The notes: generated from the letters alone by a model not told the origin. A stretch of DNA of 64,000 nt from Chiloscyllium plagiosum (GCF_004010195.1 NC_057718.1:82338458-82402457), one strand, 5' to 3'. Positions 184 to 61,215 are shown, counted from the stretch's first letter. Translations and numbers: made by a program.

Positions 184-1010
184 AACTGGATGCTGGAAAT
201 CAGGAACAAAAAGAAATAGAAATTGCTGGAAAATCTCAGCAAATCTGGCAGCAGCATTTGTGGAGAGAAAACAATTATCGTTTCAGGTCCAGTGACTCTT
301 ATTCAGAACTGATAGCAAGGAAAGGGTTGGTATTTATGTGGAAGATGTGGTGGGGAGAAGGGTGGAGTAAATAAAAGGAGATAGACAAAGTGGCTAAAGG
401 TCAGTCTGGGAGAATGAATAGCTGCTAATGGGAGTGATTAGCTAACAATGGGTTGTGTGCACAGACTGAGTGACCACCTTGCAGAACACCTATGTTCTGT
501 CTGCAAAAATGACCCAAGCTTCTAGTTGCTTCCCACTTCAACCTGCTGTGTTTCCTGGCCAACACCATTGTCTCAGGCTTGCTGCAGTGCTCCAGTGAAG
601 TTCAGTGCAAGCTGGAAGAACAGCACCTCCTTTTCCACTTGGAAACTGTGCGAACTCCCAGACTCTATACAGAGTTAAACAATTTTAGGGCTTGAGCAAC
701 TTCGCCCATGTTCTTACCCCAACCCCATCACGTGGACTGCTACCACACACAACCCATTGTCAGCTATTAATCCCCATTAGCTATTCATTCTCCCAGACTG
801 ACCTTTTATCTACTTATTTGTCTGTCCAATTGTTTCTCTCTTTTGGGCTCCATCTCCACTTATCATTTCTATTCTCCCTCCTACCCCCACTACATCCTCA
901 AAAAAATACCATCAGTACTGAAGAAGGGTTACTGCTTGAAGCGCTAACTCTGATTAGTCTCCACAGGTGCTGTCAGACCTACTGAGTTGTTCCAGTAATT
1001 TCTGTTTTTG
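184..1010 (+). mobile_element. Penelope-like element, 5'-truncated with an inverted 5' arm
   Basis: GIY-YIG C-terminal remnants RLSDHLAEHL (~462) and KLEEQHLLFHL (~610). 416-459 is the reverse complement of 746-786. Both termini carry degenerate hammerhead motifs (ctgaaga at 918-924). Confidence 0.8.
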
Positions 1011-1202
1011 CTCATAGCTGTGACTCTGGTGATTTTTGTAGTTATTGCTTTCTAAATTTGTTTTGCTGGGAAAAACATGCTTTTAGTAATTTCAGGTACT
1101 GTTTATATTGGAGGGAGTTAGCAGGAGAAGAAACATTTTAAGTGCTGTAGCTCTCCATACCAGTCTAACCAGTCTACTGACTATGAACTAATCTAATTGA
1201 TG

Positions 1203-1500
1203 TCGAAGAGTGTGGTACTAGAAAAGCACAGCCGGTCAAGTAGTATCTGAGGAGCAGGAGAATTGATGTTTCGGGCACGTGCCCTTCATCAGGAATGAGG
1301 CTTGTGGGCCTAGAGGTCTGAGAGAGAGGTGGGCGGGGCGGGGGTGGGGGAAGGTAGCTGGGAATGTGATAGGTAGATGAAGGTGGGGGAGAACGTGATA
1401 GTTTGGAGAGGAGGGTGGAGCAGATAGGTGGGAAGGAAGATGGACAGGTAGGACCATTCGAGAGGGCGGTGCTGGGTTGGAAGGTTTATACTGGGATAAT
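1203..1500 (-). mobile_element. Penelope-like 3' end / terminal repeat
   Basis: Its reverse complement resembles 57450-57740, the 3' end of the PLE at 56202-57756. Confidence 0.8.
1265..1292 (-). ncRNA. Minimal type I hammerhead ribozyme motif
   Basis: Minus strand reads CTGATGA-A-GGGC-acgt-GCCC-GAAA-CATC. The helix III palindrome ACGT has decayed to ACAT. Confidence 0.65.
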
Positions 1501-1501
1501 T

Positions 1502-2445: not shown

Positions 2446-2534
2446 CTAGAGGTAAATTACTTGCTGCAGGATTCCTAGCCTTTGACCTGCTCTTGTAGCC
2501 GCAGCATTTATATGGCTAGTCTATATGGTCATTC

Positions 2535-7559: not shown

Positions 7560-7750
7560 TGAAAATACCAGACAATCTTAGCAGGCCTGACCACATGTGA
7601 GATTTGAAACTGGGTTAATGTTTCAAGTCTGACTGTTCTTCAGAACCAAGGAATCCTATTAATCCTGTTATTCTGTCCACAGATGTGGCCAGACCTGCTG
7701 AGGCTCTCCAGCATTTTCTCTCTTTATTTCAGATTTCTAGCATCTCAGTG
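7560..7750. mobile_element. Degenerate inverted-repeat PLE terminal-repeat mini-element
   Basis: Left arm agcaggcctgaccacat...gttcttcagaa is inverted relative to right arm ccacagatgtggccagacctgctgag. Confidence 0.6.
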
Positions 7751-8159: not shown

Positions 8160-9036
8160 GTAACTTTGGCATTAACTCTTAAGGAGTATAGAAATTTGGG
8201 ATATAAATATAACTTTGATAATGCCATTTATATTCAGAAAAAACTTAAATTTATAAGACAACATTTTTTTGACAAGCTAGTGTCAACTTCTGAGTGACAT
8301 TTTTGAGGTTGTTAAAATCCATCCTGTCATAGGCTTGAAGGGCCAAATAGAAAACTACTGTTTCTGTTTTCTGTTTCTAATTGCCTCACTATCACAGCTG
8401 CCATATCAGTGACTGGTTGCCACCAATTCCACCCACAAAAGTAGGACAAAAGTATATTAACCTCTATGGACATGACCATGACCTTCTGCACACTAAATTA
8501 ATGAAATTTATCAATCCATCAAAAATAAGCTAATATAAACCTGCCTCTCGCATCTCCATTTTAAAAACTTCCTCCTCTCAGGTTAAACCTGTACCCTCGA
8601 CTATTTAAGCCCAGACATTTGTGAACAAGATTCTGTGCCTCTCACTAGTTTTATATACCTCTATCAGATCACCCCTCAGCCTCTTACTGCATTTAATTAT
8701 TAGTATTTACAGCACCAAATTAGATCAATTTTTTGCTTCACAAGCCTCTTCCCATTCCTTTTCATCTGACTTTACAATCTTTCCTCCTATTCCCTTCTCC
8801 CTTCTGTTTATCTCACTTCACTTAATCTAACTGTGCCAGCATATTCAAGCAAAGGCTTGAATAAAGCAGGACAATGCCAACAGATCTCATGGGTCAAATG
8901 TACTGTTTCTGTGCTGCTAAATGCTATACAATGTAGATTGAGCAGCATTCCACTGTGGTTTAGCAATTTGACTGCCAGAACTGTCTGAAGTGGATATCTT
9001 TGGAATATGCATGCCCAGTTTAGGCCCTAATGAAGG

Positions 9037-9212
9037 GAGAAAGTGAGGACTGCAGATGCTGGAGATCAGAGTTGAGAATGTGGTACTGGAAAAGCGCACA
9101 GATCTGGCAGCAGCTGAGGAGCAGGAAAGTCAACGTTTCAGGCTTATGTCCGAAACGTTGATTCTCTTGCTCCTCTGCTGCCTGACCTGTGCTTTTTCAG
9201 CACCACACTCTT
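9037..9212. mobile_element. Palindromic PLE terminal-repeat mini-element
   Basis: Inverted arms join at aacgtttcaggcttatgtccgaaacgtt, so the hinge lies inside hammerhead helix II. Confidence 0.8.
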
Positions 9213-9864
9213 GAAGAGTTTCTAATGAAGCCTGGGTTTCCCACATCAGTTTGGAACTTTAGCACCTGTAGTCAAGGCTGTTTCAAGAGGAGAATTCTGA
9301 TATGCACTGTTTTAATGTGGGTCATAGAAATGGGCATAGGACATGCTGCTTTTTCATGAATATTCTATCATTCAAGTCTTAGTTATGGTAAATCTAACTT
9401 CTCTCCTGTTTGGTTCCATTGTGCTTGATTGACTGTTGCTAGGCAAAAACTATCTCCCTTCATTCTGAAATAAATTTATATGACCATTGAACTTTAAAGT
9501 TGAGATGTCTGTGGGGTGGGGTTTTGAGATTTCCACTTGTCTTTTAGCAGAACATCTTGACATCTCACTTGAATGGACTTATTCTAATTTTATGCTTGAC
9601 ACTCGGGTCATAATTTATAATATGCAAAATTCAATTCAAAGTGGCTAGAATGTGGAACTTGTTACCTCCTCAGGTGGTTGAGGAGCATAGACTGAATGCA
9701 GTTAAGATGGAAATGAGAGAAACAAGTGTTGGGGACACTTTAGATGTAATAATGAGAGGAGACTTGTGTCAAGCACAAAACTGACCCAAACCTGTTGGGT
9801 GCGCAGTCGTCTACTGTACCATACATGTTTCTTAAAGTAACCTTTTTTATTTTCCTTTGTGCAG

Positions 9865-14200: not shown

Positions 14201-14388
14201 GCGCAGCAGGTCAGGCAGCATCCAAGGAGCAGGACAATCGACGTTTCGGGCATAAGCCCTTCAGGAAACAGGGCTTATGCCCGAAGTGTCGACTCTCCTG
14301 TTCCTTGGATGCTGCCTGACCTGCTGTGCTTTTCCAGCAACACATTTTTCAGCTCTGATCTCCAGCATCTGCAGTCCTCACTTTCTCC
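14201..14388. mobile_element. Palindromic PLE terminal-repeat mini-element with a 12-bp TSD
   Basis: caatgcaagtga at 14189-14200 and 14389-14400. Inverted arms hinge at the hammerhead core (~14260-14270). Confidence 0.88.
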
Positions 14389-17972: not shown

Positions 17973-18206
17973 TAAGGATAACAGCAAATTACTGTAGATT
18001 TTGGAATCTGAAACCAAAACAGAAAATGCTGGAAAATCTCAGTAGGTCTGGCAGCATCTGTAAGGAGAGAAAAGAGCTGACGTTTCGAGTCTAACTAACC
18101 CTTTGTCATAGCTTTGACAAAGGGTCAGTTAGACTCGAAACGTCAGCTCTTTTCTCTCCTTACAAATGCTGCCAGACCTGCTGAGATTTTCCAGCATTTT
18201 CTCTTT
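17973..18206. mobile_element. Near-perfect palindromic PLE-derived mini-element with a 12-bp TSD
   Basis: tggcccttgtga at 17961-17972 and 18207-18218. About 95-bp inverted arms centred on 18111-18112 with few mismatches. Confidence 0.9.
18110..18148 (+). ncRNA. Minimal type I hammerhead ribozyme, U3-A8 core variant
   Basis: AGCT (helix I)-TTGACAA-A-GGGTC-agtta-GACTC-GAAA-CGTC-AGCT (helix I'). Predicted cleavage after C18144. Confidence 0.7.
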
Positions 18207-18740: not shown

Positions 18741-19252
18741 TTATAGATTTAAATAAAACTTATAGCATTCCTATTAAAGGGATTGGTCTGATTCCAAAGC
18801 TATCTGTGAAATTCAAACTATTGAATCCAGCAGTTTATCAAGTATTGTTTAAGTTTTCAGATTGGTAAACCAGGATTTCACAGGCAATATGAAGTGATCA
18901 GGCACCGTGGCCTCACTGCAAAGATTATCTATGGTGCATTGCATTTCATTATGGAGTCAACAGTGGTACTAGTATTCCAGATAAATTATGTAACAAAACA
19001 AAATTTAAACCAAAAGGGTTTTTGATGTAATTCCCTTCCTGGTATTTGAACATTCTAGTCTAACTCACATTAACCCAGATTTCAACGAGGCAGAATATTT
19101 CTCTCACATTTTAACTTCTAATTCCTCCGTAGATTGTGCCCTCTGTTCTGGATTCCTTTTAGTGTAGAGCTAGGCTACAAGGGACTTTTTCTCAGTGGGT
19201 AGTGGAAATCTAGACCTGTCTTGCAAATAGACATGCTGAATAAAGCATTGTG

Positions 19253-19377: not shown

Positions 19378-19507
19378 ATAAAGCATTGTGCCTAGGAGTT
19401 GGGAGGTCATGTTGCAGCTGTATAGGTTATTGCAAGGGACTTTTTCTCAGTGGGTAGTGGAAATCTAGACCTGTCTTGCAAATAGACATGCTGAATAAAG
19501 CATTGTG

Positions 19508-41819: not shown

Positions 41820-44430
41820 ACTTGGACTACTTTTCCCAGGATCACCTCTGGGTCCTATGGCCTACCTGCAGCCAGCCAGCATACCAGTTCTCCCTCCTCA
41901 TCCATCCAACCCCACAATGCACCCTTTGCCTCCACCTCTCCTTCTTCTGCCCCCCCCCCCCGACCTTGAACTGTCTGAGGTCGAATGGTCTATCCTCAGT
42001 AAAGGGCTCACGTTAGTGCTCCTCCGTCCCCACCTTAATGAATTCTGGACCCACCAAGACTTGGAGCTCTTCTTCCGCTGCCTCTACCTCCGCATCCATG
42101 CCTACTCCTTTGACAAAAACTCCAAACCTCCCTCTGAGGATCTCTTCGCTCACCTCCAACTTTCCTCCTCCACTTGGTCACCACCCACCGCCAGCCTCAT
42201 ACCCACCCTAGACTTCTTCATTGCAGATTGCTGACGTGACATCAACCACCTCAATTTCTCCACACTCCTCCAACCTCACCCCCTCTGAACATGCAGCATT
42301 CCACTCTCTCCGCACCAACCTCCTGTTCACCATCAAACCCGCTGACAAAGGTGGGGCAGTGGTAGTCTGGAGAATGGACCTCTATGTTGCAGGAGCTAAA
42401 CGTCAACTCTCCGACACCATGTCCTACCTCCCCCTTGCCCACAACCACACCATGGCACATCAGGTCAAAATCACTCGCACTGTCCGTGACCTCACTGCCT
42501 CTGATGATCTCCCCACCACTATCTCCAAACTCATAGTCCCTAGCCCCACACTGTCCGGTTCTACCTGCTCCCTAGATCCACAAGCCCAACTTCCCCGGCC
42601 GACACATTGTCTCCATATGCTCCTGCTCCCTGAATTCATCCTGTTCAACCTCGACTCCGTCCTCTCCCCCTTGGTCCAGACACTTCCCACCTACATCCAC
42701 GATACCAACCATGCCCATTTCTTCAGCAACTTCCAGTTCCCTGGCACCCAGCGCTTTATCTTCACTATGGACGTGCAGTCCTTATACACGTCCATACCCC
42801 ACAAGGATGGCCTTCAGGCCCTCCGCTTCTTTCTCTCCAGCAGACCCACCTAGTCCCCCTCCACCAATACCCTCCTCCGCCTCACTGAACTCGTCCTCAC
42901 CCTTAATCATTTTTTCTTTAACTTCTCCTATTTCCTCCAAATCCAGGGGTGGCCATGGGCACCCGGATAGGTCCCAGCCATGCCTACTTCTTTATCGGCT
43001 TTGCCAAACAGTCCCTCTTCAGCACCTACACAGGCACTGTGCCCCATCACCATTCCATTGATGACTGCATCGGTGCAGCATCTTGCACCCAGGCTGAATT
43101 GGAGCAGTTCATCGACTTCACCTACAACTTCCATCCCACCCTCAAATTCACTTTGTCCATCTCGGACACCTCCCTCCCTTTCTTGACCTCTCCATTTCCG
43201 TCTCTGACGACAGTCTCCAGACGGACATTTACTACAAACCCACAGACTCTCACAACTACCTGGACTACATCTCATCCCATCCAGTATCCTGCAAGAACTC
43301 CATCCTGTTTTCCCAATTCCTCCGCCTCTGCTGCATCTGCTCAGATGAAGAGACATTCCACTCCCAAGCATTCCAGATGTCCACCTATTTCAAACAATGT
43401 TCCTCCCCCCCTCTGTCATCCAGACAGCCCTCCACCGCGCCACCTCCATTCCCGTTTCACTGCTCTAAATCATCCCCCCAATGCAATAAAGACAAATCCC
43501 CCCTTGTCCTCACTTACCAACCCACCAGTCTCTGCATCCAACATATCATCCTGAAACAGGTCTGCTAACTCCAACTAGACCCCACCNNNNNNNNNNNNNN
43601 NNNNNNNNNNNNNNNNNNNNNNNNNNNNNNNNNNNNNNNNNNNNNNNNNNNNNNNNNNNNNNNNNNNNNNNNNNNNNNNNNNNNNNNNNNNNNNNNNNNN
43701 NNNNNNNNNNNNNNNNNNNNTTGTGCCACTCTCCCCACCAAACCCCCAGAACTCCCAAGTACCTCCCCCACAACCAGAAAAGATAGAAAACCTGCTGGCA
43801 CACCAACCCCCACCCCACTCCCACCTCCATCCAGGGCCCCAAACAGTCCTTCCAGGTGAGACAGACATTCACCTGTCTCTTTTCCAGCCTAGTTTACTGC
43901 ATCAGGTGCTCCCAATGTGGTAAACTTAGGGAATGGTTCACCGAGCATCTCAGCTGGGCCCGCAGTTACCAGACCTCCCAGTTACCACTCCTTTCAATTC
44001 CCCCAATCACTCCCCTTCCGACATGACCATCCTTGGCTTCCTCCATTGCCACAATGAACCAAACCACAAATTGGAGGAACACCACCTCATCCTCTGCCTG
44101 GGCAGCCTACAGCCCAGAGGACTCAACATTGAGTTCTCCAATTTCAAATACTCCCACTTCCTTTCTCCTACTCACTTCCCAGCTCCTCCCCCTCCCTTCC
44201 ACTACTCCCAGCCACCAACTGGATTCATTCCTCCGATCGACCAACCAGGTCATACCCCCTGCCTGTCTTCACCTATCCCCAATTCACTACCCTGCCCCCA
44301 ACAATCCCTTTATCTGCAGCTCCCCTTCTACCCACCCCGAATTCTGAAGACAAGTTAGACTCAAAACATCGACTTCTCCACCTCCTGATGCTGCCTGGCT
44401 TGCTGTGTTCTCCCAGCCTCCTGCTTGTCT
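41820..44430 (+). mobile_element. Penelope-like element (RT + GIY-YIG), frameshifted; assembly gap at 43587-43720
   Basis: LSKGL, TIKPADKGGAVVV, FTMDVQSLYTSIPH, AMGTRIGPS, IDD and KLEEHHLILCLGSLQPRGLNIEF motifs. Terminal repeat with a degenerate ctgaaga near 44344. Confidence 0.92.
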
Positions 44431-44901
44431 ACCAGTTCTCTGACTTCCCATCATCTTCACCACATTGTATGCCTTTTCTTTTGCTTTTATGCTTTTCCTG
44501 ACTTCTCGTGTCATCCATGGTTTCATCATCTTGCCCCTTAGTATCTTTCATCTTCCTTGGGATGAATTTCTGCTGTGCCTCCTGCATTACCCCCAGACAA
44601 CCCTGTATTTGCTGCTCCCCCATCTTCCCTGCTGGGGCTCCCTTCCAATCAACTCTGGCCAGCTCCTCCCTCTTGTCTTTATAGTTGCCTTAACTCAATT
44701 GTAATACCATTACGATCTGATTCCAACTTCTCCCTCTCAAGCTGCAGAATGCATTCTATCATATTATGGTCACTGCTCCCTAGGGGTTCCTTCACATTAA
44801 GCTTTCTAATCAAGTCTGCCTCATTACCCATCACCAAATCCAGAATTACCTGTTCTCTCAGGGGCTTGACCACGAGCAGCTCCAATAAACTATCTCATAG
44901 A

Positions 44902-46459: not shown

Positions 46460-48014
46460 TGTGATGATGCTGCTTCTTTAATAAAGTTAAGCTGTCATAG
46501 AGTCATAGAGATGTGCAGCACAGAAACAGAGCTTTCGGTCTAACTCATCCATGCCGACCAGATATCCCAACCCAATCTAGTCCCACCTGCCAGCACCTGG
46601 CCCATATCCCTCTAAACCCTTCCTATTCATATACCCATCAAATGCCTTTTAAATGCTGTAATTGCACCAGCCTCCACCACTTCCTCTGGCAGTTCATTCT
46701 ATACACGTACCACCCTCTGTGTAAAAAGGTTGCCCCTCTCACCCTGAACCTATGCTCTCCTGTTCTGGACTCCCCCTCCCCAGAGAAAAGACCTTGTTTA
46801 CTTATCCTATCCATGCCCCTCATGATTCTATAAACCTCTTTCAGGTCATCCCTCAGCCTTCAACGCTCCAGAAAAAACAGCCTCAGCCTATTCAGCCTCT
46901 CCCTAAAGTTCAAATCCTCCAACCCAGACAACATCCTTAGAAGTCTTTTCTGAACACTTTCAAGTTTCACAACATCCTTCCAATAGGAAGGAGACCAGAA
47001 TTGTATGCAATATTCCAACAGTGGCTTAATCAATGTCCTGTACAGCTGCAACATGACCTCTCAACTCCTGTACTCAGTACTCTGACCAATAAAGGAAAGC
47101 ATACCAAACGCCTTCTTCACTATCCTATTTACTTGTGACTCTACTTTCAAGGTGCTATGAACCTGCACTCCAGGGTCTCTTTGTTCAACAACATTCCCTA
47201 GGACCTTACCATTATGTGTATAAGTCCTGCTAAGATTTGCTTTCCCAAAATACAGCATCTCGCATTTATTTAAATTAAACTCCATCTGCCACTCCTCATC
47301 TGATCAAGATCCCGTTATAATCTGAGGTAACCCTCTTCACTGTCCACTACACCTCCAATTTTGATGTCATCTGCAAACTTACTAAATATACCTCTTATGC
47401 TCAGATCCAAACTATTCATATGAATGACAAAAAGTAGAGTTCTTAAGTTTTTCTCAAGAGGCATTGTAAACTGCAGAGGTTCTGACTTGTCTGGAATTTG
47501 GGGTCTTTGCTTTTGGTAACAGATACTACCCAAGGCAACAATCAGGGAAAAGGCCTTTAGGTTTTTTTCGAAACAGTTGTCCAATGATAGGGGAGTGACC
47601 GGTTCTCCCAGTTCAGGAATTTTTCTCGTTTGGTTTAGTTTTAGTTGGGGACCCGGAGAAACAGCTGCAGTGAAACGTTTCCATGCTTCAGCAAATGATC
47701 CTGGCTGATTCTGTCTCTGTCTGACATCTCCCCTGTAAGAACCTGTGATGGAATTTACCTTTTTGCCAAAGGGTGTGTTTATGAGATGTTGCAGGGAATC
47801 ACAACAGCTCTTTGTGAAATTGCAGGGGATATCATGGCGGTCAGGTTTTCAAATTATAGTTATTCTAAATTCTATTTTATTTGAAGCCAAGGAGTTTGAC
47901 CAGCTGCATCACTCTTGGGATATCCACTTACATCTGCCTGAAACAGCTAAAGCTGTGTAGGAGCTGGGCTACCTTCTTAAAATGTATTGTGGGGGTCTGG
48001 CCTCGTCCATAACA
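46460..48014. mobile_element. Probable solo LTR (~610 bp), interrupted by a CR1 at ~46495-47440
   Basis: Starts TGTGATG and ends CATAACA (6/7 inverted match, TG...CA). Flanked by ctat/ttat, and the host LINE resumes immediately after it. Confidence 0.6.
46495..47440 (-). mobile_element. Young CR1 3' fragment
   Basis: KFADDIK, MEFNLNKCE and LEYCIQFWSP motifs; ctctatgactctatgac tail. Confidence 0.9.
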
Positions 48015-48477
48015 TTATTGATCAGGAACTGAACTGGACTAACTATATAAATATAGTGGCTACAAGATCAGGATAATGTCTAGGAATCTTGCAGCAAGTA
48101 ACTCCCCTCCATAATCTCCAAAATGTGATGGCACAATGTGATGGAACATTCCTGATTTGCCCAAATGAGTGCAGCTTCAACAACACTCAAGAAAAATGAT
48201 ATCATCCAAGCCAAGCCAGACCACTCAATGGCATCACATCCACAAGCATCCACTCCTTCCACCACCAATTGTCAGTAGCAACAGTGTTTGCCATCTACAG
48301 GATGCAGCAATTCAAATTCACAAAGGCTCCTTGGATGGTACCTTCCAAACCAATGATCACTTACAGTCACAAGAACAAGGGCAGCAATTCCCCTCCAAGC
48401 CACTGACCATCCAATATATCTTGTAACTTCAATGTTGTTGGGTCAAAATCCTGGAACTCCCTCCCTAATAGCAGATA

Positions 48478-49490
48478 TACTAATGGAGTGCCTCAGGGTA
48501 TGGTGCGGGGCCCATTGCTGTTTGTCATCTACATCAATGATTTGGACGAGAATGTACAATGCAGATGACACTAAAATAGGAGATATCATGGACAGTGAGG
48601 AAGGTTATCAGAAATTGCAGCAGGACCTTGATCAGCTGGGGAAGTGGGTCAAGAAGTGGCAAATGAAGTTTAATATAGATAAGTGTGAGATGCTGCATTT
48701 TAGAATATCAATTCTAAGCAGGTGTTTCATGGTGAATAGTAGGACCTTAAGGAGTGTTGTGGAACAGAGGGACCTTGGAGTTCATGTGCACGGTTCTCTG
48801 AAAGTGGAGTCACAGATAGACAGGGAAGTGAAGAAGGCTTTTGGCACACTGGCCTTCATCAGTCAGGGCATTGAGTATAGAAGTTGGAAAGTTATGTTGC
48901 AGTCGTACAGGACATTGGTGAGGCCGCACTTGGAGTATTGTGTTCAGTTTTGGTTATCTTGCTATAGGAAAGATGTTATTAATTTGGAAAGAGTGCAGAA
49001 GAAATTTAGAAGGATGTTGCCAAGACTCAACAGTCTGAGTTATAGGGAGAGGTTGGACAAGTTAGGACTGTTTCTTTAAAGTGTGGGAGACCGAGCGGGG
49101 GGGTGGGGGTGGGGGATCTTATAGAAGTGTGGAACATCATGAGAGGCATGGATAGGGTGAATGCACTGTCTTTTTTCCCCCAGGATTGGGGAATTGAGGA
49201 CCAGAGGGAATCAGTTTAAGATTAGAGGGGAAAGGATAAAAGGGAAGCTGAGGGGCAACGTTTTTACACAGAGGATGGTACGCAAATGGAATGAGCTGCC
49301 AGCAGAAGTGGTTGAGGTGGGTACATTAACATCATCTAAGAGGCATTTGGACAAATACATGAATAGGAAAGGTTTAGAAGGATATGGGCCAAGTACAGTG
49401 AAATGGGGTTAACGTAGATGGATATTTTGGTCGGTATGGACCAGTTTGGGCGAAAGGGCATGTCTCAGTGCTCCATGACTCTATGAGTCT
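48478..49490 (+). mobile_element. CR1 3' fragment
   Basis: ADDTKIG, WQMKFNIDKCE, LEYCVQFW and WNELPAEVV motifs; gactctatgagtct tail. Confidence 0.9.
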
Positions 49491-49656
49491 ACTGAGTGAT
49501 TCACCACCATCTTCTAAGGACAACTAGAAATGGGCAAGAAATGCTGGCCAGCCAGTGACACCCACATCACAAGCAAATTTTAAAAACTGTCACCACAGCC
49601 TGTCAACCTTTAAAAATAAACACTGATCAACTTACCAGTGCAGATTTTCACAGGGA

Positions 49657-49803
49657 TGAGAAAGTGAGGACTGCAGATGCTGGAGATCAAAGTCGAGAGT
49701 GTGGTGCTAGAAAAGCACAGCAGGTCAGGCAGCGACGAGGAGCAGGAGAATTGATGTTTCGGGCGGGAGCCTTGACGTTTCAGGCAGGAACCCTTCATCA
49801 GGA
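49657..49803 (-). mobile_element. Solo PLE terminal repeat with a partly duplicated hammerhead
   Basis: Core at 49774-49801 (minus strand CTGATGA-A-gggt-tcct-gcct-GAAACGTC) plus an extra helix II/GAAAC copy at 49753-49771. Confidence 0.8.
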
Positions 49804-52800
49804 AAAAATGTTGTTTCTCAGAGTTGCATAGACTGAGCTTATTGCAAGAATCACCAAAGACTGCTGGCATCTGATTGGCTGGCAGTTTCTGGCAGGGAAA
49901 GACTTCAGTGTGGGGTTCAGTGATACACCAAGAGGTCCCAACCACTGGTCAACTCTGAGTGTCTGACCGGTGCTTGATCCAATGGGATTTCTCACTGGTT
50001 GGGGTAATGTATTAGTCACCCCTGAAGGTGCTCACCATTATACCCAGAGCTGAGAACGCTAAATCAGCCATTACTTATTTTCAGTACATTCTCACAACAT
50101 TGCTACATGAGCACCCCTCCCCCTTTGTCTGTTAAGGATAAATTCCTTTGCAACATCAGATTTGAATTTTCAAGAAAAGAATCTGTAACTGGGAGGTTTT
50201 GACAATAGTGATCTTTGCTCATTTTGAAAAGCTACTTAAATAGTCAAGAGACCAGACTGCTGAATCCTGTAACAGGATGTGTATTTTCCCAATGCCAATG
50301 GGTTTATTCTTTAGCAACCGTTAATGAGCAGTATGTTTAACTCTGTTACTAACATAATTCTGACAGGGAATGTTCTTGTCCATTTATAGATGGAAATATC
50401 AGTACAGTTAGGCACAAACTTTAAGTGTTTTCATTTTGAATGCACTGCTCTGAATTACAGGAAATCTTTCTCCCAGACAGACTGGGAGTGCCCTTAAAAG
50501 TTTTTGACCTTAAATAATACTAACGTGAAAATTTGTTTCTTTGCTTTGATGCCTAAGTACATGTCAGACTAATTCTAGCTTCTGATTCTACATTTCTGAT
50601 TATGATTTCATTTACTGTTAAGCTCACAGTAAGGTAGGTTTGTTGGTGATGGGAGGGCTTATGCTGAATTTTTTCATTCGATGTCAGTATTGAACACCCT
50701 GGATTAGGACCAGTACAGGACAGATGTAGAGCTCAAAGCTCTCTTTGTGAAGTACAAACAAGGTGCTAACACGCTCATGTCAGTTGAATACCCCTGAACC
50801 TGCAATTTGCCCTGAATAAATGGTCCATTTTTATTATGTGTTATTGTAGGAATTTGATCAACCTTGCCTAAGACTCTGGCAGCTAACATCAACAATAAAG
50901 AAACTTGCATTTATTTAGTGCCCTTCACATAATTAATTAGCTCAAGGAATTTCACAACAGCGTTCTTCAGCTATCTGCCTGAAGGCGGATACAACCACAC
51001 CACAATGATGTTAACCACAGGAAAATGAGGAGGCAGGACCCAAACAGGGATCAGAACTCCTGTCAGCCATGTTAGGAGCCCTGTTTTGTTGGCATCAATC
51101 TAATCAACAGTAGTCATAATACAACCAAATCTATCCCAAGGAATGTTCTGGAAACATGTACTTTAATGCGATCTGGAGCCACGGTAGAAGCTCCAACGAT
51201 TGACTAGGAATCTCTCCTACTCCTAACGCCTACCATTGTGTGTGTGTGTGAGTCAGATTTACAGGTCAATACTCAACCTGTTTGATCACATGGTAAACAC
51301 ACCTTTCTTGGCCACAAAGTCCTGAGTAGAACCTGAGGTGTCTGCTTCAGTGCCACGCGACCACTTTGCCAGAGCCATGTAAGCGCTTGCTAAGACAGAC
51401 TGTTCCGATGTTGGTGAAATTCATCCATTTTCAGTGAGTGAAGTTCCAGCCCGCTGTCCATTTTCTGGAGTTCTCAGGTCAAACATTGATGAGAAGTCTG
51501 CTAGCGTAACAAAGGGATGCCTGATGCCAACCTGACAGAAGAAAAGCACAACACATATGCAGCCAGGAGTGAGACAGGGTTACCCCAGCCTTGCCTAGGA
51601 TCTCAGTAATAGAATCAGAACAGTAAAAATGAGGAATTAAAAACAATAAAAAGCACTGTTGCACAAAACAATCTTTTAAAGAAGTTTTTAGGGAAATTTT
51701 GTATCCTCATTCATTTTGGACATTTTGGGAATTAATGTGTTTCTAATGAAATACAGTAGCCTACAGAATATAAAAAAATAGTTAAGTTAATGCTTTGGAA
51801 ACTTCCACCTGACAGCAAATTTTCAGAGTTCAATGAATGCCTCCTGATTGCCCCCAACTATGACAGACTGCTGTTTAGCTGGAGTGGGAGTTCTAACTGA
51901 CTTGGGACTGAAGTTAGTTTTGTTGAGTTCCCAGTGGATGTGTATGCACAACGTTGAACTATTTCTTATCTCCAACTCAAGTTCTCATTGGTGAAATATT
52001 CTGTTCCTAACCCTATCTCCATGACTACAGCTGTGTTGAATCCCTTTGTTTTTATTTGCATCCTGAAAATTGTCACAAAGATGACAATGTTTTGGACTTT
52101 GAATGTTCTCTACTTTGAACATGTCAGCAATCTAATGATGTAGGGTCGGCACAATATTCCCTCTGATTTCTGAGTTATTTTTAAAATACCTTAAAATCAT
52201 ACACACTTAACTGCAAGGGAAGAGCAATTTCCTTCAGTTTATATGGAGCCAACTGTGACTCATATCCAGTACAATGCTAATAACCCGTCCGAGTAATACA
52301 CAAACAACTTTCGTTGATTAAAATGTTCTAACAGCATCCATATTTGGTATTAACAAAATGATTATCATTCCACTGACTGATTAGCACAGTAAAGTTCATG
52401 TTTTGATCCTTGGATTACAGAGTTCACTGTAGAACTCACTGTAATCCCAAGCTCCAAAAGGCGAGTTCACTTCATATCAATGGAAGTTATTGTGATCACA
52501 TATTTTTGAAGATTTAAGCCTGATTCAGTGCAGTTTATCCACCAAAAGAATGAGATAGGAGGAATGAGAAAAATTCATTCCATTAAAACCCTCACCTATG
52601 CTTGTGTTGCTTCCACATTCAACTGTTCTGTGCTCTCATGGTTGACTCCTATCTTTGGCTCTCAAACCTGAGGTTATGTTAAACACCACTGTCCATTCCT
52701 CTCCAACACTTAAATTGTAAGTCCTGCTTACAATTTCTATATTGGCTCCTGACACCAATACATCATATTTAAATTTCTTTGCAGAACTTGTGTACTACAA

Positions 52801-55800
52801 GTTCCTAAATGCAATTTGTAATTTAACTAAAAGCCTTTTTGAAACTTGATTGGAAGGATATAGCTATCCAAATGGCCTGCCCTTGACCAGAATCCTACTT
52901 TTTTTCTTTTTAAGTGTGAACCAAACTCCTTTTGAAAGGTATAGTTGAATTTATTTTTTTCAGCTGTGCATTTCAGATCGTGGCCACTTGCTTTGTGAAA
53001 TATTGTTTAACTACCCTCTTTTTTGCCATTTACCTTAAATCTATGTCCTCTTATTAAGGACTGCACCCAGGAAAACTTAACAGCGAAATTCACAACTGAA
53101 CTTGGAGGAACCTGTTTGGGAGAGGTTACAGCACAGAAACAGATGAGTGTGCAATTTTAAGTGTAGCCTTGCTGTAAATCTACAATAGTGAGTAGAGTTG
53201 GTTCTTTCTTGATTATATGTTTCATTGAGATCTATCTCTTGATTAAATTTCAAAAATATAAGCCATAAGTATTAAGTTAGTCTGGAGCAATTTGTAGAGT
53301 ATTAAGACAGTGCTAATTTCTGGATCTGTAGATTGGAAGGAGCAAAATTGGCCTAGAATAGAGTGATATGCTCTTCTTGTCAGATGTGGGAGTTTCGAGA
53401 GACTTTACATTTTACTGAGGATTATATCCGCAATAAATGTCGTTGGTTGCGAATCCTATCAAAACGAATGGATCTGTTAGAGGAGCGACAGTTAGAGGCA
53501 ATGAGGAGTTTACAAAGGTAGAGGGTATGATGGATGGCAGTTATAGGAAGGGAGAAAAGCTGCAGATACAGTCACATAGATGGGTTAACTCCAGGATAGG
53601 TAAGAGAGGTAGGCAGGTGCTGCAGAGTCTTCTGTGGCTATCCCCATTTTAAACAAGTATGTTGTTTTGAAAAATGTAGGGAGAAGATGGATTATCAGGG
53701 GAATGAAACACATAAAGCCAAGTTTCTGATTTTGAGACTGTTTCTCACGTAATGAGGGGTACGTTGGATTACAAGTGATTGACTGTGATAGGGGACTCAC
53801 TCTAGACCGAGGCACGGACAGACGTTTCTGCAGCCAGCAGCGAAAAATCAGAATGGTGTGTTGCCTCCATGCTGCCAGAATCAAGGATGTCTCAGAGAGG
53901 ATGCAGGATGTTCTCAAGGGTGAGAGGAACCAGCAGGAGGTCATTGTACACATTGGAACCAATGACAGATGAAGAGAAAAGAATTAGATTCTGAAGGGAG
54001 AATATAGAGAGTTAGGTAGGAGTTTAAAAAGGAGGTCCTCGAGAGTAGTAATATCTGGATTACTCCCAGCGCTACGAGTAGTGAGGATAGGAATAGGAGG
54101 ATAGAGCAAATGAATGCATGGCTGAGGAGCTGGGGTATGGGAGAAGGATTCACATTTTTGGATCATTGGAATCTCTTCTGGGGTAGAAGTGACCTGTGCA
54201 AGAAGGACGGATTGCACCTAAATTGGAAGGGGACTAATATACCGGCAGAGATTTGCTAGAACTGCTCGGGAGGATTTAAACTAGTAAGGTAGTGGGGAGG
54301 GGGGTGGGACCCGGGGAGATAGTGAGGAAAGAGATCAATCTGAGACTGGTACAGTTGAAAACAGAAGTGAGTCAAACAGTCAGGACAGGCAGGAATGAAC
54401 CAGAGAACAAGGTAGGTCTGATAAATTAAACTGCATTAATTTCAATGCAAGGGGCCTAACATGGGAGGCAGATGAACTCAGGGCATGGTTAGGAACATGG
54501 GACTGAGATATCATAGCAATTACTGAAACATGGCTCAGGATGGACAGGACTGGCAGCTTAATGTTCCAGGATGCAAATGCTACAGGAAAGATAGAAAGGG
54601 AGGCAAGAGAGGAGGGGGAGTGGTGTTTTTGATAAGGGATAGCATTACAGCTGTACTGAGGGAGGATATTCCCGGAAATACACCCAGGGAAGTTATTTGG
54701 GTGGAACTGAGGAATAAGAAAGGGATGATCACCTTATTGGGATTGTATTATGGACCCCCTAATAGTCAGAGGGAAATTGAGAAACAAATGTGTAAAGAGA
54801 TTTCAGTTATCTGTAAGAATGATAGGGTGGTTACAATAGGGGATTTTAATGTTCCAAACATAGACTGGGACTGCCATAGTGTTAAGGGTTTAGATGGAGA
54901 AAAATTTGTTAAGTGTGTATAAAAATATTTTCTGATTCAGTATGTGAATATACCTACTAGAGAAAGTGCAAAACCTGACCTACTCTTGGGAAATAAGGCA
55001 GGGCAGGTGACTGAGGTGTCAGTGGGGGAGCACTTTGGGGCCAGCGACCATAAATCTATTAGTTTTAAAATATGATTTGGAGATGCCAGAGAAAGTATAT
55101 TCCTGTTAGGGTGAAAGGAATGGCTGGTAGGTATAGGGAATGCTGGATGACTAAAGAAATTGAGGGTTTGGTTAAGAAAAAGAAGGAAGCACATGTCAGT
55201 ATAGACAGGATAGATCAAGTGAATCCTTAGAAGAGGCTTTATGTGTTTCATTCCCCTGATAATCCATCTTCCCCCTACATTTTTCAAAACAACATACTTG
55301 TTTAAAATGGGGATAGCCACAGAAGACTCTGCAGCACCTGCCTACCTCTCTTACCTATCCTGGAGTTAACCCATCTATGTAAAGGCATTAGGAGTATACT
55401 TAAGATGGAAATCAGGAGGGCAAAAAGGGGACATGAGATAGCTTTGGCAAATAGGGATACAGAGAATCCAAAGGGTTTTTAGAAATACATTAAGGACAAT
55501 AGGATAACTAGGGAGAGAATAGGGCCCCTCAAAGATCAGCAAGGCGATCTTTGTGTGGAACCGCAGGAGATGGGGGAGATACTAAGCTAGTATTTTGCAT
55601 CAGTTTTTACTGTGGAGAAGGACATGGAAGATACAGAATGTGGGAAACAGATGGTGACATCTTGAAAAATGTCCATATTACAGAGCAGGAAGTGCTGGAT
55701 GTCTTGAAATGCATAAAAGTGGATAAATCCCCAGGATCTGATCAGGTGTACCCTAGAATTCTGTGGGAAGCTAGGGAAGTGATTGCTGGGCCTCTTGCTG

Positions 55801-56201
55801 AGATAATTGTATCATCGATAGTCACAGGTGAGATGCCGGAAGACTGTAGGTTGCTGCCACTCTTTAAGAAAGGTAATAAGGACAAACCAGGGGACTATAG
55901 ACCAGTGAGCCTGATGTTGGTGGTGGGTAAGTTATTGGAGGGACTCCTGAGGGACAGGATGTACATGTATTTGAAAAGGCAAGGACTGATTAGGGATAGT
56001 CAACATGGCTTTGTGTGTGGAAATCATGTCTCACAAACGTGATTGAGTTTTTTGAAGAAGTAACAAAGAGGATTGATGAAGGTAAAGTGGTAGATGTGAT
56101 CTATGTGAACTTCAGTAAGGCATTCGACAAAGTCCATGGGACACTGGTTAGCAAGGTTAGATCTCATGGAATACAGGGAGAACTCGCCATTTGGATACAG
56201 A

Positions 56202-57756
56202 GTTGTGAGTGTGGTGCTGGAAAAACACAGCAGTTCAGGCAACATCTGAGGAGCAGAAGCGTCGACACTTCGGGCAAAAGTCCTTCATCAGGAATGAGGC
56301 TGTGAGCCAAGGGGGTGGTTAGATAAATGGGAGGAGGGTGGGGCTGGGGGAAAGGTAGCAGAGAGTGTGATAGGTAGGTGAGGGTAGGGGTGAAGGTGAT
56401 AGGATGGTGAGGAGACTGAAGCAGATAGGTGAGAAAGAAGATGGACAGGTAGGACAAGTCATGAGGGCAGTGCCTTCCAAACACATGGGAGGGGAAATTG
56501 TGGTCTTTAAAGAAGGAGGCCATCTGGTGTTTTCTGTGGTGGAACTGGTCCTCCTGGGAGCAGATGAGGCAGAGGCAGAGGAATTGGGAATAAGGGATAA
56601 GGACGACCGGTTCCTTGTTCCCAGGACGACCAGTTCTACCACAGCCTCCACCTCCATTGCATCTGCTCCCAGGACGACCAGTTCCACCACAGATCACACC
56701 AGATGGCCTCCTTCTTTAAAGACTGCAAATTCCCTTCCCAAGTGGTTGATGATGCCCTCCTGCGCATCTCATCCATTTCCCACACCTATGCCCTCAGACC
56801 CCACTCCCTCCAACTGCAACAAGGACAAAACCCCCCTGGTCGTCACCTTCCATCCCATCTATCTCTGTATACATCGCATCATGCTCCGCCATTTCCGCCA
56901 CCTACAAACAGATCCCACCACCAGAGATATATTTTCCTCCCCACCCCATCCACTTTCTGCAAAGACCATTCCCCCTGCGACTCCCTTGTCAGGTCCATGC
57001 ACCCCCCCAAACCAGCCTCCCCTACTGGCACTTTCCTCTGCCACCACAGGAATTGCAAAACCTGTGCCCTCACCTTGCCCCTCACCTCTGTCCAAGGCCC
57101 CAAAATGCCTTCCACATCCACCAGGGTTTCACCTGCACTTCCACGCATGTCATTTATTGTATCCATTGCTCCCGATGCAGTCTCCTCTACACTGAGGAGA
57201 CTGGACGCCTACTCGCAGAGCACTTCAGAGAACATCTCAGGGACACCTGCACCAATCAACCCCACTGCCCCTTGGCTAAACACTTCAACTCCCCCTCCCA
57301 CTCTGCCGAGGACATGCAGGTCCTGGGCCTGCTCCATCGCCACTCCCTAACCACCTGATGCCTGGAGGAAGAACATCTCATCTTCCGCCTTTGGACCCTC
57401 CAATCCCAGCATCAATGTGGATTTCACCAGTTTTTTCATTTCCCCTCCCCCTTATCCCCGATCCAACCTTCCAACTTGGTAGCCCCCCATGACATGTCCT
57501 ACCTGTCCATTTTCCTTCTCACCTATCCGCTCCACCCTCCTCTCTGACCTATTACCATTACCCACCCTCCATCTACCTATCGCATTCCCAGCTACCTCAT
57601 CCCCCCCAGCCCCACCCTACTCCCATTTATCTCACCATCCCACGGCTCACAGCCTCATTCCTGATGAAGGGCTTTTGCCTGAAACATTGATTCTCCTGCT
57701 CCTCGGATGCTGCCTGACCTGCTGTGCTTTTCCAGCATCTGCAGTCCTCATTTTCA
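56202..57756 (+). mobile_element. Penelope-like element with inverted termini and a 15-bp TSD, inserted in the CR1 RT
   Basis: ccatttggatacaga at 56187-56201 and 57757-57771. GIY-YIG VIYCIHCSRCSLLYTEETGRLLAEHFREH. 56202-56475 is an inverted copy of the 3' end. Confidence 0.93.
57657..57692 (+). ncRNA. Minimal hammerhead ribozyme motif in the PLE 3' terminal repeat
   Basis: attc-CTGATGA-A-GGGC-tttt-GCCT-GAAA-CATT-gatt. Directly downstream of the GIY-YIG region on the same strand. Confidence 0.7.
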
Positions 57757-59149
57757 CCATTTGGATACAGAACTGGTTCAAAGGTAGAAGACAGAGGGTG
57801 GAGGGATGCTTTTCAGATTGGAGGCCTGTGACCAGTGGAGTACCACAAGGATTGGTGTTGAGTCAACTACTTTTCGTCATTTATAAAAATGATTTGGATG
57901 TGAACATAGGAGGTACAGTTAGTAAGTTTGCAGATGACACCAGAAATGGAGGTGTAGTGGACAGCGAAGTAGGTTAACTCAGATTACAATGAGATCTTGA
58001 TCAGATGGACCACTGGGCTGAGGAGTGGCAGATGGAGTTTAATTTAGATAAATGTGAGGTGCTGTATTTTGGGAAAGTCAGTTTAGCAGGACTTATACAC
58101 TTAATGGTAAGGTCCTAGGGAGTGAATAAAGGGACCTTGGAGTGCAGGTTCATAGGTCCTTGAAAGTAGAGTCGCAGGTAGATAGGATAGTGAAGAAGGC
58201 GTTTGGTATGCTTTCCTTTATTAGTCAGAGTATTGAGTATAGGTCTTGGGAGGTCACATTGCAGCTGTAGAGGAGATTGGTTAGGTCACTTTTGGAATAT
58301 TGCGTGCAATTCTGGTCTCCTTCCTATTGGAAGGATGTTGTGAAACTTAAAAGGACGTTCAGAAAAGATTTACAAGGATGTTGCCAAGGTTGGAGGATTT
58401 GAGCTATAGGGAGAGGCTGAATAAGCTGGGACTGTTTTCTCTGAAGCATCAGAGGCTAAGGGATGACCTTATAGAGGTTTATAAAATCATGAGGAGCATG
58501 GATTGGATAAATAGACAAAGTGTTTTCCCTGGTGTCGGGGAGTCCAGAACTAGAGAGCATAGGTTTAAGATGAGAGGGGAAAGATATAAAAGAGACCTAA
58601 GGGGTAACTTTTTCATATAGGGGCTGGTATGTGTATGGAATGAGCTTCCAGAGGAAGTGGTGGAGATTGGTACAATTGCGACTTTTAAAAAGCATCTAAA
58701 TGGGTATATGCATAGGAAGTGTTTAGAGGGATATGGACCAAGTGCTGGCAAATGGGACTTGATTAGGTTGGAATACCTGGTTGGTATGGATGAGTTGGAC
58801 TGAAGGCTCTGTTTCCGTGCTGTACATCTCTGTGACTCTACCAACTTCCCCGTTTGTGGAAACAACGTTTGCTTATCTATTCTATCAAATACCCTCAAAT
58901 TTTCTCCTAAATCTCTCTTTCATGTACTCTTCTGAGGAGAGTATTGCCATATGCTAGATTTCATTGCTTCATTATCACAATGCATATTTTTATTGTTCAC
59001 TTTTATGGCTTGAAGTCATTTTGTGTTGTCACTGTGCCAGTGGCTAGGAAGAGCTGTATTCCCCATTTGTGGAGAACATTTTCCATCATGTTAGGCTTTC
59101 GCTGACTTTGGATAAAACAAATTGTCAGTATAAAAAGTAACAAAGGAGG

Positions 59150-61215
59150 GAAAAATTAGATTATGAAAGAAAGCTGGCTGGAAATATAAAAACAACTGGT
59201 AAGAACTTGCATAAATATTTTAAAAAGAATTAACACAGTGAGTTTTGGACTCATAGCAATTGCATCTAGCAATTAATAATGGAAAATGAAAAGAGGCAGA
59301 TAATTTGTATAAGTATTCAGTACAGAAGCTATTTCTGAAACATTCAGAAAAAACTGTAAATCAGAAATGAAAGGAAGGGGGGAAATTTAGGAAATTAGAA
59401 TCACTGGGAAAATGGTACCAAGGAAGTTGTTGGAGCTTCAGCTTGACAAGTTCTTGTCTGTTAGATCTTACATGTTTTAAAAGAAGTGAGTGGTGAGTTA
59501 ATTGATGCCTTTCTAAAATTCCCTGGATTCTGGAAAGATTCTACTCAATCGATGGCTAGCAAATGTAACTCCTTTATTCAAAAAGGAAGAAAGACCAAAA
59601 GCTGGAATCAATTAGCTTAACATTTGTCAGAGGGAAAGTGTTTGTTGTTATGAAAGTTGCTACTGCAGGGCACTTAAAAAAAACACAAAGAAATCAGGCT
59701 GTAAACATGGTTTTGTATAAGGGAAGCCATTGCCTTGTTTAACCAACATATCGGAGTTTTTTGAAGTAGTAACATGGGTTGTGATAAAGACGAACTGATG
59801 GGTGTACTATACTTCGATTTCCAAAATGCATTTGATAATGTATTAAGTTGCAAAACATGAAGGCTCATGGTGTAGCAGATCACATATTTGCATGGATACC
59901 TAAAAGGACACAGGCAAGAAGCATAAAAGGGTCATTTTCTTCATGTCTGATCAAGAGTCATCTAGATTTGAAACATTTGCTTGCTCTCTGTCCACAGATG
60001 CTGCCTGACCTGCTATGATTTCCAGCCTTTTTTGTTTTCAGGTCATTTTAGAATGGATTAGATTAGATTAGATTTCCTACAGTGTGGAAACAGGCCCTTT
60101 GGCCCAACCAGTCCACACCGACCCTCTGAAGAATAACCCACCCAGACCCATTTCCTAATGCACCTAACACAATGGTCAATTTAACATGGCAAACTCATCT
60201 GCAAATCATTGGATTCTTGTTAGGTGAGCCATGGGTATCAGTGCTGAAACCTCAACTTCTAAATTACTTCTTAGGTGAAACTACCAAAGGTATTATGACT
60301 AACATTTCTGATGACACAAAGGGAAATAAGAAGTAAGTTATGAAGAGAAGGCAAGGAAGCTACTAAAAGATAAAGTCAAGTTCAGTGAGTGGCGAAAAAT
60401 CTGGCAAATTGAGTTCAATGCGCAGAAACATAAAACTGTCCATTTTAGCAGTAACAACGTAGAAAAAAGCAAATTATCTCAATGTTAAGAGATTGCAAAG
60501 CTCTGAGATGCAGAGCAATCTGGGTGGTCTAGTGCATGAATCACAAAAGGCTAATTTGCAAGAACAGCAAGTAATCTTTTGTTTAAAAGAGTAGAATCAT
60601 TGTTTATTGTGAAGGGAATTGAATGCAAAAGTAGAGAGGTTATGCTTCAATTGCACAGAACATTGGTGAGACTGTGTCTGGATTACTGTGTACAGTATTG
60701 GTTTCCCTAGTTAATGAAAGATGAAAAATAAACTGGAAGCATTTCAGAGAAAGCTAACTAAATTAACAACCAAAATGGGTGACTTGTCTTGTGAGGAAAG
60801 GGTGGACAGTCTGGACTTGTATCTGTTGGTACTTGGTAGAGTAAGATTCAGAAGACTTCAATGAAATACACAAGGTGCTGAGGGGTCTTGGCAGAGAATG
60901 TATTTCCCCTTGTGAGAAAATCTAGAGCCGGGGGTCACCATTTTTAAAAAAAAGGGTCAGTTCTTTAAGATGGAGATGAGGCTTTTTTTTTTCTCTGAGG
61001 GTCATAAAACCTTAGGAACTCTATTCCCCAAAACGTGATTGAAAAAGAATCTTTGAATATTTTTAAGGCAAAGATAAATATGCTCTTAGTAAGCAAAGGT
61101 GTGAAAGGTTGTCAGGGGTAGGTGGGATTGTGGAAATCATCAGCCATGACCTTATTAAATGGCTGAGCAGCCTCAAGGGATCAAATGGATTACTCATGTT
61201 CCTAACTTATTTGTT
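59150..61215 (+). mobile_element. Old CR1 ORF2 fragment containing a PLE repeat (~59941-60040) and a SINE 3' part (~60056-60205)
   Basis: WLANVTPLFKKG, FDFQNAFD, SDDTK and LDYCVQYW remnants; ctgatcaagagtcatctagatttgaaacatt; gattagattagatt tail. Confidence 0.75.

Follow-up and report, generated by a model that had tools for sequence, protein, structure and literature searches.

Hammerhead-bearing short repeats in a shark genome as probable by-products of Penelope-like element retrotransposition

Short repeats carrying all or part of a hammerhead ribozyme motif are scattered through C9:82338458-82402457, a 64-kb stretch of a 3.56-Gb shark genome that we refer to throughout as the window. A preliminary description of this stretch interpreted the repeats as a propagating system of their own, akin to short interspersed elements (SINEs) or retrozymes and derived from the termini of Penelope-like elements (PLEs). 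The question raised by this locus is whether the repeats indeed multiply as a separate lineage or are left behind by the PLEs themselves. The repeats are probably PLE insertion products of at least three families (here A, B and F), with each short unit copying the 5'-terminal 95-135 nt of the PLE RNA, between a predicted TATA-directed start that closely precedes the hammerhead and one of two internal start sites of the reverse transcriptase (RT). On our best reading, the short units are promoterless by-products of PLE retrotransposition and represent no SINE or retrozyme lineage.

Ends of the insertions and their place in the element

We searched the window by BLAST, taking two of its copies as queries, and by nhmmer, taking six of its copies and one natural genome copy. 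Together, these searches bore out the hammerhead repeats at every coordinate previously given, and we grouped these units as 17 insertion events (one per ~3.8 kb, in line with the earlier figure of roughly one per 4 kb). For comparison, we assembled a sample of 80 arbitrary 10-kb stretches from four contigs of the same genome, together with the window (864 kb in total), and searched it with one natural copy, obtaining 164 hits that form 137 events; positions in this query are given as ref, with the CUGA box of the hammerhead at ref 838. The sample held 259 distinct hits, that is, one per 3.3 kb. The family B reference cross-matches family A (34 of 86 hits overlap), and B counts use the 52 non-overlapping hits.

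The 5' ends of the insertions are concentrated at the edge of the hammerhead, 0-20 nt before the CUGA box. Of the 145 hits extending into the 3' region, 94 have their 5' end within a span of 39 nt (ref 818-856), with 42 starting further upstream and 9 further downstream; the density of 5' ends per nt is ~0.15 at ref 750-817, ~3 at 818-846 and ~0.3 at 847-900. Exact target-site duplications (TSDs) of at least 8 nt were found for 32 of 128 sample events, compared to 4 of the same 128 events in a displaced control window, so that the unit boundaries are real insertion ends. The TSDs range overall from 8 to 16 bp, and the TSD-defined single units mostly begin at ref 829-848. The same 5' boundary is shared by copies bearing an open reading frame (ORF), 13 of 24 of which start at ref 824-846. 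Ordinary random 5' truncation of PLE insertions would be in keeping with the heavy 5' truncation for which PLEs are known (PMC8557442, in the portion consulted) and with the hits that start scattered upstream (42/145) or inside the unit (9/145); however, because the 5' ends pile up at the hammerhead edge in a sharp density peak, with boundaries confirmed by TSDs, we reject it as a highly improbable account of the short copies. The discrete short class that the preliminary description had set against a smooth truncation series is thus apparent in the 94 of 145 ends falling within 39 nt.

The 3' ends form two classes, 35-40 nt apart, in all three families: ref 915-930 and 960-965 in family A, ends that differ by a 35-nt tail in family B, and ends ~40 nt apart in family F (17 and 17 of 43 hits). 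Judged from sequence, this 35-40-nt gap is the PLE 'tail'. Many of the insertions are head-to-head pairs (27/137 sample events and 7/17 window events), and 21 of the 24 classifiable pairs combine a long with a short end (expected fraction 0.49, binomial P = 1e-4). In a set of 30 genomic family B loci with 35 arms (L171-L200), eight loci join the arms exactly via the terminal palindrome AGCT. The family B copies are 96-100% identical genome-wide, suggesting very recent or ongoing activity, and head-to-head pairs apparently account for over half of the 30 best loci. The flank consensus at the loose end of the unit is AT-rich.

Longer copies place the unit within the element. A natural long copy contains, in this order, a GIY-YIG-like ORF, a C-rich 3' untranslated region (UTR), CUGAAGA-A-GGGC-UUAU-GCCC-GAAA-UGUC, 95 nt and the end of the element. 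In another copy (L118), the unit continues unbroken into the ORF, ~36 nt separating the long 3' end from the ATG, and among 30 loci fetched with the PLE ORF start as query, the unit was detected in 24, immediately upstream of the ORF. Given this location, the 3' ends of the insertions correspond to internal positions of the full RNA; in family A, the 5' UTR contains both of these 3'-end sites, ~36 and 70 nt before the ATG. The window likewise contains RT-like and GIY-YIG-like copies that end in units (44330-44439 and 57650-57757), as expected from the earlier proposal that the repeats cap ORF-bearing PLEs. The ORF upstream of the unit at L017 matches GIY-YIG with E 1.1e-3 (19.6 bits, the cut-off being 22.6), and a shark protein that shares 80% identity with the window ORF matches RVT_1 (E 7.7e-3) followed by GIY-YIG (E 2.5e-4), which is the PLE domain order, at sub-threshold Pfam scores. 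The long open frames noted in this genome consist partly of N runs, and one such locus, which is X over most of the frame, was set aside. Clustering of the downstream flanks in the sample found few flanks alike, with only three or four resembling the unit-to-ORF continuation. At L118:250-540, the 5' end of the ORF-bearing PLE copy adjoins another abundant repeat, one that presumably resembles a shark SINE.

Upstream of the 5' boundary, each family carries a TATA or TATA-like motif, which lies outside the unit and is absent from the short copies. In family B, this is TATAAATA, with its first T 33 nt upstream of the sharp boundary AGCUUUGAC in 3/3 long copies among the 30 loci; in family F, TATAAAT lies 33-38 nt upstream of the boundary; and in family A, where the 5' ends are more scattered, TTTATC lies ~22-41 nt upstream and is conserved at 0.8-0.9 among 36-42 long copies. 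We infer that the common 5' boundary is the 5' end of the transcript, in which case helix I of the hammerhead would begin at or near +1. Alternatively, the boundary could mark an RT stop or template switch after copying of the folded hammerhead in longer or tandem RNAs. In families A, B and F alike, it falls at the 5' edge of helix I, and extra letters at some junctions, along with the junction inside helix II at 9036-9221, show that switching or microhomology joining occurs. Nevertheless, a polymerase moving 3' to 5' has unwound the structure before reaching the boundary, the TATA or TATA-like motif stands at a promoter-like distance in three unrelated unit sequences, the sharpness of the boundary follows TATA quality (sharp in B, scattered in A), and the eight AGCT-joined family B loci are as expected of two identical-ended run-off complementary DNAs (cDNAs). 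We therefore consider an RT stop or switch improbable and retain the transcript start as the preferred explanation of the boundary.

The window insertions and their hammerhead motif

The 17 window events comprise seven head-to-head pairs, eight singles, one 5'-truncated copy and one long copy, with no tandem copies (0/17). TSDs of 9-14 bp accompany ten events, compared to the at least six previously claimed, and the assignment of the repeats to at least three independently inserted subfamilies derived from PLE termini holds for families A, B and F, the units being independent insertions with TSDs of their own. The events are, by window coordinates:

186-1013, both strands: old head-to-head pair with long arms (minus-arm unit 186-339, plus arm 472-1013), found by nhmmer; both hammerhead boxes decayed; no TSD detected (best 5 nt)
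1215-1500, minus strand: 5'-truncated copy of family A spanning ref 648-915, with the short 3' end; its hammerhead (1265-1292) shows decay of the helix III CpG (GAAACATC)
7560-7749, both strands: B-like head-to-head pair, found by nhmmer; motif decayed; TSD search negative
9036-9221, both strands: family A head-to-head pair with long and short 3' ends (ref 966, 916); TSD CTAATGAAG; arm junction inside helix II, hence no CUGA box
14201-14388, both strands: family A head-to-head pair; 12-bp TSD CAATGCAAGTGA
17973-18206, both strands: young family B head-to-head pair, left arm with the 35-nt tail and right arm with the short end; TSD TGGCCCTTGTGA; intact minimal hammerhead ribozyme (min-HHR) with U3-A8 core at 18114-18144 (plus)
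19253-19377, minus strand: single 125-bp unit of family A with an intact min-HHR (19349-19376); TSD ATAAAGCATTGTG
24212-24349, plus strand: family F unit with a short inverted piece at its 5' end, counted among the head-to-head events; TSD TTCCCTTT(T)GATAA; motif CTGATGA-A-(G)GAGC...GCTCC with GAAA decayed to AAAA
30124-30224, plus strand: B-like unit cut off within the hammerhead, no CUGA box, found by nhmmer; TSD search negative
33610-33703, minus strand: single family A unit of 94 bp, short 3' end; TSD ATAGGGGAGGT
38104-38227, minus strand: single family A unit, long 3' end; TSD TCTGAAATG
38468-38557, minus strand: weak tail-only fragment of a related family (nhmmer E 4.5e-5 to 1.7e-3), additional to those previously listed
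41161-41290, plus strand: single family A unit of 130 bp; 14-bp TSD CCTAAAATCTTACC
41818-44439, plus strand: long decayed PLE copy with RT-like ORF pieces (FTMDVQSLYTSIP..., ...IDDCIG...); terminal unit at 44330-44439 with decayed hammerhead and short 3' end
49656-49814, minus strand: single family A unit, hammerhead region partly duplicated internally; intact min-HHR at 49774-49801; TSD doubtful (8 nt with 1 mismatch)
56202-57758, both strands: single insertion of two long inverted arms inside ORF2 of a long interspersed element (LINE); TSD ATTTGGATACAGA; the minus arm (~56202-56553) has the short 3' end and the plus arm (56825-57758) the long one, the latter arm also carrying a GIY-YIG-like ORF piece and ending in the unit 57650-57757
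59939-60040, plus strand: single B-like unit; TSD GGTCATTTT; motif decayed

An empty site for one of these insertions is available within the window itself. At 19194-19513, a ~65-bp segment (AGTGGGTAGTGG...GCATTGTGCCTAGG) occurs in two copies ~250 bp apart, the first broken by the 19253-19377 unit and the second intact (empty site at ~19494-19507), and this paralogous intact segment provides the unoccupied counterpart against which the insertion and the 13-bp TSD can be checked. The LINE at 54527-58000 (an Exo_endo_phos piece, E 3.5e-5, and RT-like ORF pieces) is split by the 56202-57758 pair, with the reading frame continuing after the TSD. Further LINE RT-like ORF fragments occur on both strands at 47315-49079 (RVT_1 E 0.008 for 48357-49079). 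N runs occupy 23534-23556 and 43587-43720, the latter inside the RT-like part of the long PLE copy, and GC skew is strongly negative at 40-48 kb.

Judging by their sequence, the repeats carry a minimal hammerhead of the PLE type. The motif reads CUGAUGA-A-GGGC-N4-GCCC-GAAA-CG-UC in family A, where a CUGAAGA box also occurs, UUGACAA-A-GGGUC-AGUUA-GACUC-GAAA-CG-UC with helix I AGCU/AGCU in family B (17973-18206), and CUGAUGA-A-GGAGC-AGC-GCUCC-GAAA-GC-UA in family F (24212-24349). The U3-A8 core (UUGACAA-A) is present in 29 of the 35 family B arms of the 30 loci, and the unpaired A between A9 and G10.1 is found in 97% of 121 family A copies as well as in B and F. All three families have a helix II of at least 4 bp with a G10.1-C11.1 closing pair, a short helix I (2 bp, mismatch and 1 bp in A; 4 bp, AGCU/AGCU, in B; 3 bp, CAC/GUG, in F) and, in place of a stable helix III, a palindromic 15.2-16.2 segment (ACGUC in A and B, AGCUA in F). 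Thermodynamic folds, which are silent on catalysis, recover helix II, as well as helix I for family B, and the homodimer is predicted to beat two monomers by 4.7 kcal/mol for A and 1.8 kcal/mol for B, lending weak support to pairing through the palindrome. The pattern CTGANGA-N6-30-GAAAC has 5 window hits vs 1.08 expected (at least 5 in 0/100 shuffles). A strict min-HHR descriptor, with a background of 0.02 hits per Markov-simulated window (50 simulations), has three (18114-18144 on the plus strand, 19349-19376 and 49774-49801 on the minus strand). Accordingly, only 3 window copies retain the complete motif, and in 14 of the 17 events it has decayed by this descriptor. Rfam hammerhead families had no match in the window, either at the gathering score or at E<=10. 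The Rfam hammerhead models presuppose a helix III hairpin.

Helix II differs by family and keeps its pairing (GGGC/GCCC in A, GGGUC/GACUC in B, GGAGC/GCUCC in F), which upholds the covariation reported among families. Within family A, 89% of helix II cells pair, compared to 24-48% for slid partners, and the changes consist of 57 wobble or one-sided cells, 54 broken and 15 compensatory. The core of the family A hammerhead is conserved no better than the downstream block GGATGCTGCCTGACCTGCTGTGCTTTTCCAGCA or the flanks, contrary to the excess conservation expected in the preliminary description; together with the mostly one-sided or broken changes, this places the covariation between master families, with individual copies decaying. 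The GAAAC(G/A)UH variation noted earlier is present; nevertheless, it mostly reflects decay of the palindromic CpG of helix III, the columns of which are 64-68% conserved in family A vs 91-98% for neighboring columns. The hammerhead in the stubs thus appears to be a passively inherited passenger that decays after insertion, above all at this CpG. At 29 loci near other PLE N-termini, the strict descriptor found just 5 motifs and hence provided no cross-family covariation set.

The best-conserved stretch of the unit (0.9-1.0 in family A) is instead a block, GGATGCTGCC(T/A)GACCTGCTG..TTTTCCAGCA, located ~30-65 nt past the cleavage site (for example, at window 57705-57737 and 18165-18197). It is common to families A and B despite their differing hammerheads, is absent from F, and is a candidate RT-recognition or promoter element.

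The sole strong Rfam hits lie at window 18047-18176, where the microRNA (miRNA) models mir-3202, MIR529 and mir-14 reach up to 48 bits on both strands. We dismissed miRNA genes here as artefacts, given that these scores stem from the family B head-to-head pair, which forms a near-perfect palindrome of 104 nt. Hairpins of paired units in transcribed introns could give rise to long double-stranded RNA.

Origin of the short units

The ends described above can be accommodated by the following putative sequence of events. The PLE RNA would start just upstream of the hammerhead, and the PLE protein would nick AT-rich DNA, with the nicked target priming cDNA from either of two internal sites that lie 55-95 nt past the point of cleavage. 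Where the 5'-proximal copy of these start sites, or a short transcript from the 3' pseudo-long terminal repeat (pLTR), is used, synthesis would run off at the RNA 5' end after ~100-135 nt and leave a stub of 95-135 bp. Priming of both target strands, one per site, would yield head-to-head pairs with the tail on one side. The templates would be RNAs left uncut by the hammerhead, as suggested by the scarcity of copies that begin at the predicted cleavage site, and the stubs, without the upstream TATA region, would be dead on arrival.

The alternative favored in the preliminary description is that the short units form a self-propagating, non-autonomous SINE- or retrozyme-like lineage in which short or tandem units are transcribed and the hammerhead-processed RNA is copied in trans by the PLE RT. 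This idea draws on the discrete length class, on the far greater abundance of units than of ORFs and on three loci with unit, 45-90-nt spacer and unit in tandem (L074:7147-7456, L037:7153-7456 and L041:7285-7542), arrangements that resemble a retrozyme-like dimer or partial tandem; in L074, where the two units are nearly identical, the spacer is made up of 5' UTR plus the first PLE ORF codons. Moreover, the best-conserved block GGATGCTGCC.GACCTGCTG...TTTTCCAGCA could be a cis signal present in every stub. From the literature, in the portions compared here, the same idea gains from a preprint that derives vertebrate retrozymes from PLE pLTRs (10.64898/2026.07.22.740005) and from the internal promoter of Drosophila virilis Penelope (PMC2377424).

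Several observations make such a lineage unlikely, however. Short and long copies are intermixed on a FastTree tree of 82 short and 34 long copies over 92 shared columns (27 label changes vs 29.9 +/- 2.0 in 200 label shuffles), so that the separate master lineage characteristic of SINEs does not emerge at the low resolution of this tree, and the short copies share their boundary with the ORF-bearing copies. There is no Rfam match in the window to a tRNA, 7SL or 5S head, and no dedicated tRNA scan was made. The head-to-tail arrangement characteristic of retrozymes accounts for 3 of 137 events in the sample and none in the window. The 5' ends do not lie at the cleavage site, as those of unit-length ribozyme products would; only 1/164 hits begins within 3 nt of its predicted position. 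The TATA motif lies outside the unit, and the hammerhead motif decays freely in the copies. By analogy with Anolis carolinensis PAc, the initiation of which needs RNA past the RT start (PMC11167929), the stubs may also lack a required part of the template. An ~800-bp element at L108:4300-5100 (minus strand) is an internally deleted and possibly non-autonomous PLE: between two units, it retains ~100 nt from the start of the ORF, followed by the GIY-YIG end and the 3' UTR. Along with the three tandem loci, it shows that non-autonomous derivatives exist but are rare.

RNA reads were available for L118:480-1400, with 2040 reads coming from one raw RNA run and zero from a second. Their depth is ~100-fold greater on the unit than on the ORF start, with both strands covered, and 97% of the reads continue into flanks that differ from one another, a pattern expected if scattered copies are transcribed passively. 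In contigs of a DNA run of unrecorded library kind, word depth on the unit exceeds that on the neighboring ORF start ~200-fold.

Several points weigh against the interpretation of the short units as run-off by-products of PLE retrotransposition. Only motif spacing and 3 long copies of family B underlie the case for TATA, the nhmmer alignment ends are uncertain by a few nt, and the tree is poorly resolved. The 5' junctions of six TSD-defined family B singles lack a consistent extra G of the kind a cap would leave: AGC is preceded by G at two of them, by C at three and by T at one. The poly-A single-cell reads on L118:480-1400 show no pile-ups of RNA starts or ends, a result that is uninformative on start or cleavage. 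An internal promoter within the shark unit may render the stubs self-transcribing, considering that D. virilis Penelope uses a TATA-less internal promoter (PMC2377424, in the portion compared). The PLE identity of the ORFs relies on sub-threshold Pfam scores (GIY-YIG 19.6-21.7 bits with a cut-off of 22.6, RVT_1 16.4 bits with a cut-off of 29.6), the window's own PLE ORF pieces have no Pfam or PDB match, and the look-alikes found in a language-model atlas, which carry GIY-YIG or DUF8422/RVT_1, are leads only. Finally, the DNA copies fit either a 5'-proximal site on the full mRNA or a short 3' pLTR transcript.

A more far-reaching proposition, which we regard as evenly balanced, is that the PLE RT mostly initiates at the entry site closest to the mRNA 5' end, leaving about a hundred cap-to-entry-site stubs, each with the whole hammerhead, per ORF-bearing copy and, with paired priming of the two target strands at both sites, hairpin-like pairs. 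If this is the case, several hundred thousand stubs would constitute a fossil record of PLE starts, RT sites and uncut templates in vivo, and SINE-like copy numbers would be reachable without any SINE master gene. In practical terms, the copies point to a testable transcript start abutting the hammerhead. For genome annotation, the stubs, which occur at ~1 hit per 3.3 kb, and their long perfect hairpins should be masked as PLE fragments, being a source of spurious miRNA-model hits.

Comparison with known systems

That PLE termini contain this motif, and that it is dispersed singly in large numbers, was already established in 2014 (PMC4209133). The portion of that work compared here describes min-HHRs in metazoan PLE pLTRs, occurring mostly as thousands of single dispersed motifs 'probably related to truncated PLEs', and opposite-strand pairs 100-700 bp apart, which are likewise ascribed to truncated PLEs. 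Those min-HHRs and the shark units are alike in the CUGANGA and GAAA boxes, the unpaired nucleotide between A9 and G10.1, the G10.1-C11.1 pair, the short helix I, the palindromic 15.2-16.2 segment replacing helix III and the covariant U3-A8 core. Unlike in that portion, the host here is a cartilaginous-fish-type genome (the nearest named proteins being those of Chiloscyllium punctatum), and the motif occupies the extreme 5' end of a discrete unit, the ends of which are quantified.

Canonical PLEs, as described in the consulted part of PMC8557442, are heavily truncated at the 5' end, form partial tandems and have a 5'-truncated copy next to them in inverted orientation, with the tail confined to one end of the insertion. 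This architecture is matched by the shark inverted pairs, variable TSDs and one-sided tail. The 5'-end pile-up and the stubs of ~100-135 bp as the dominant product are features of the shark units that this part does not mention. The animal non-LTR retrozymes of 10.64898/2026.07.22.740005, in the text compared, have type I hammerheads related to PLE pLTRs, with dispersed monomers thought to be immobile. Retrozymes are defined there by head-to-tail arrays, in contrast to none in the window and 3 tandem-like cases among 137 events in the sample.

In D. virilis Penelope, according to the portion of PMC2377424 compared, the promoter is TATA-less and internal, and a 75-bp intron lies between the start and the hammerhead. 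The start falls inside the pLTR upstream of the hammerhead region, as predicted for the shark elements, and a partial tandem is needed to supply it. The shark elements differ in having a TATA or TATA-like motif upstream and a predicted start that abuts helix I.

Within the portions of the literature compared, every hallmark is already published for PLEs (PMC4209133, PMC8557442, PMC11167929), whereas the 5'-end pile-up at the hammerhead edge, the TATA spacing and the predominance of stubs are not stated. A further parallel is the A. carolinensis PAc (Poseidon) RT, which in vitro initiates internally at two adjacent sites defining the tail and extends both target strands, with uncut RNA as the dominant template (PMC11167929). 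PAc and the shark elements both have the hammerhead shortly upstream of two RT sites, a 30-40-nt 'tail' and AT-rich flanks. Extension of both target strands and the use of uncut RNA templates also appear to be shared, the shark side being read from DNA copies. Stem II marks the beginning of the ORF in PAc, and RT initiates 111-118 nt into that ORF, whereas in shark family A the RT sites lie in the 5' UTR. In their two RT sites, both-strand priming, one-end tail and uncut templates, the shark DNA copies would thus represent in vivo corroboration of PLE mobilization as reconstructed in vitro.

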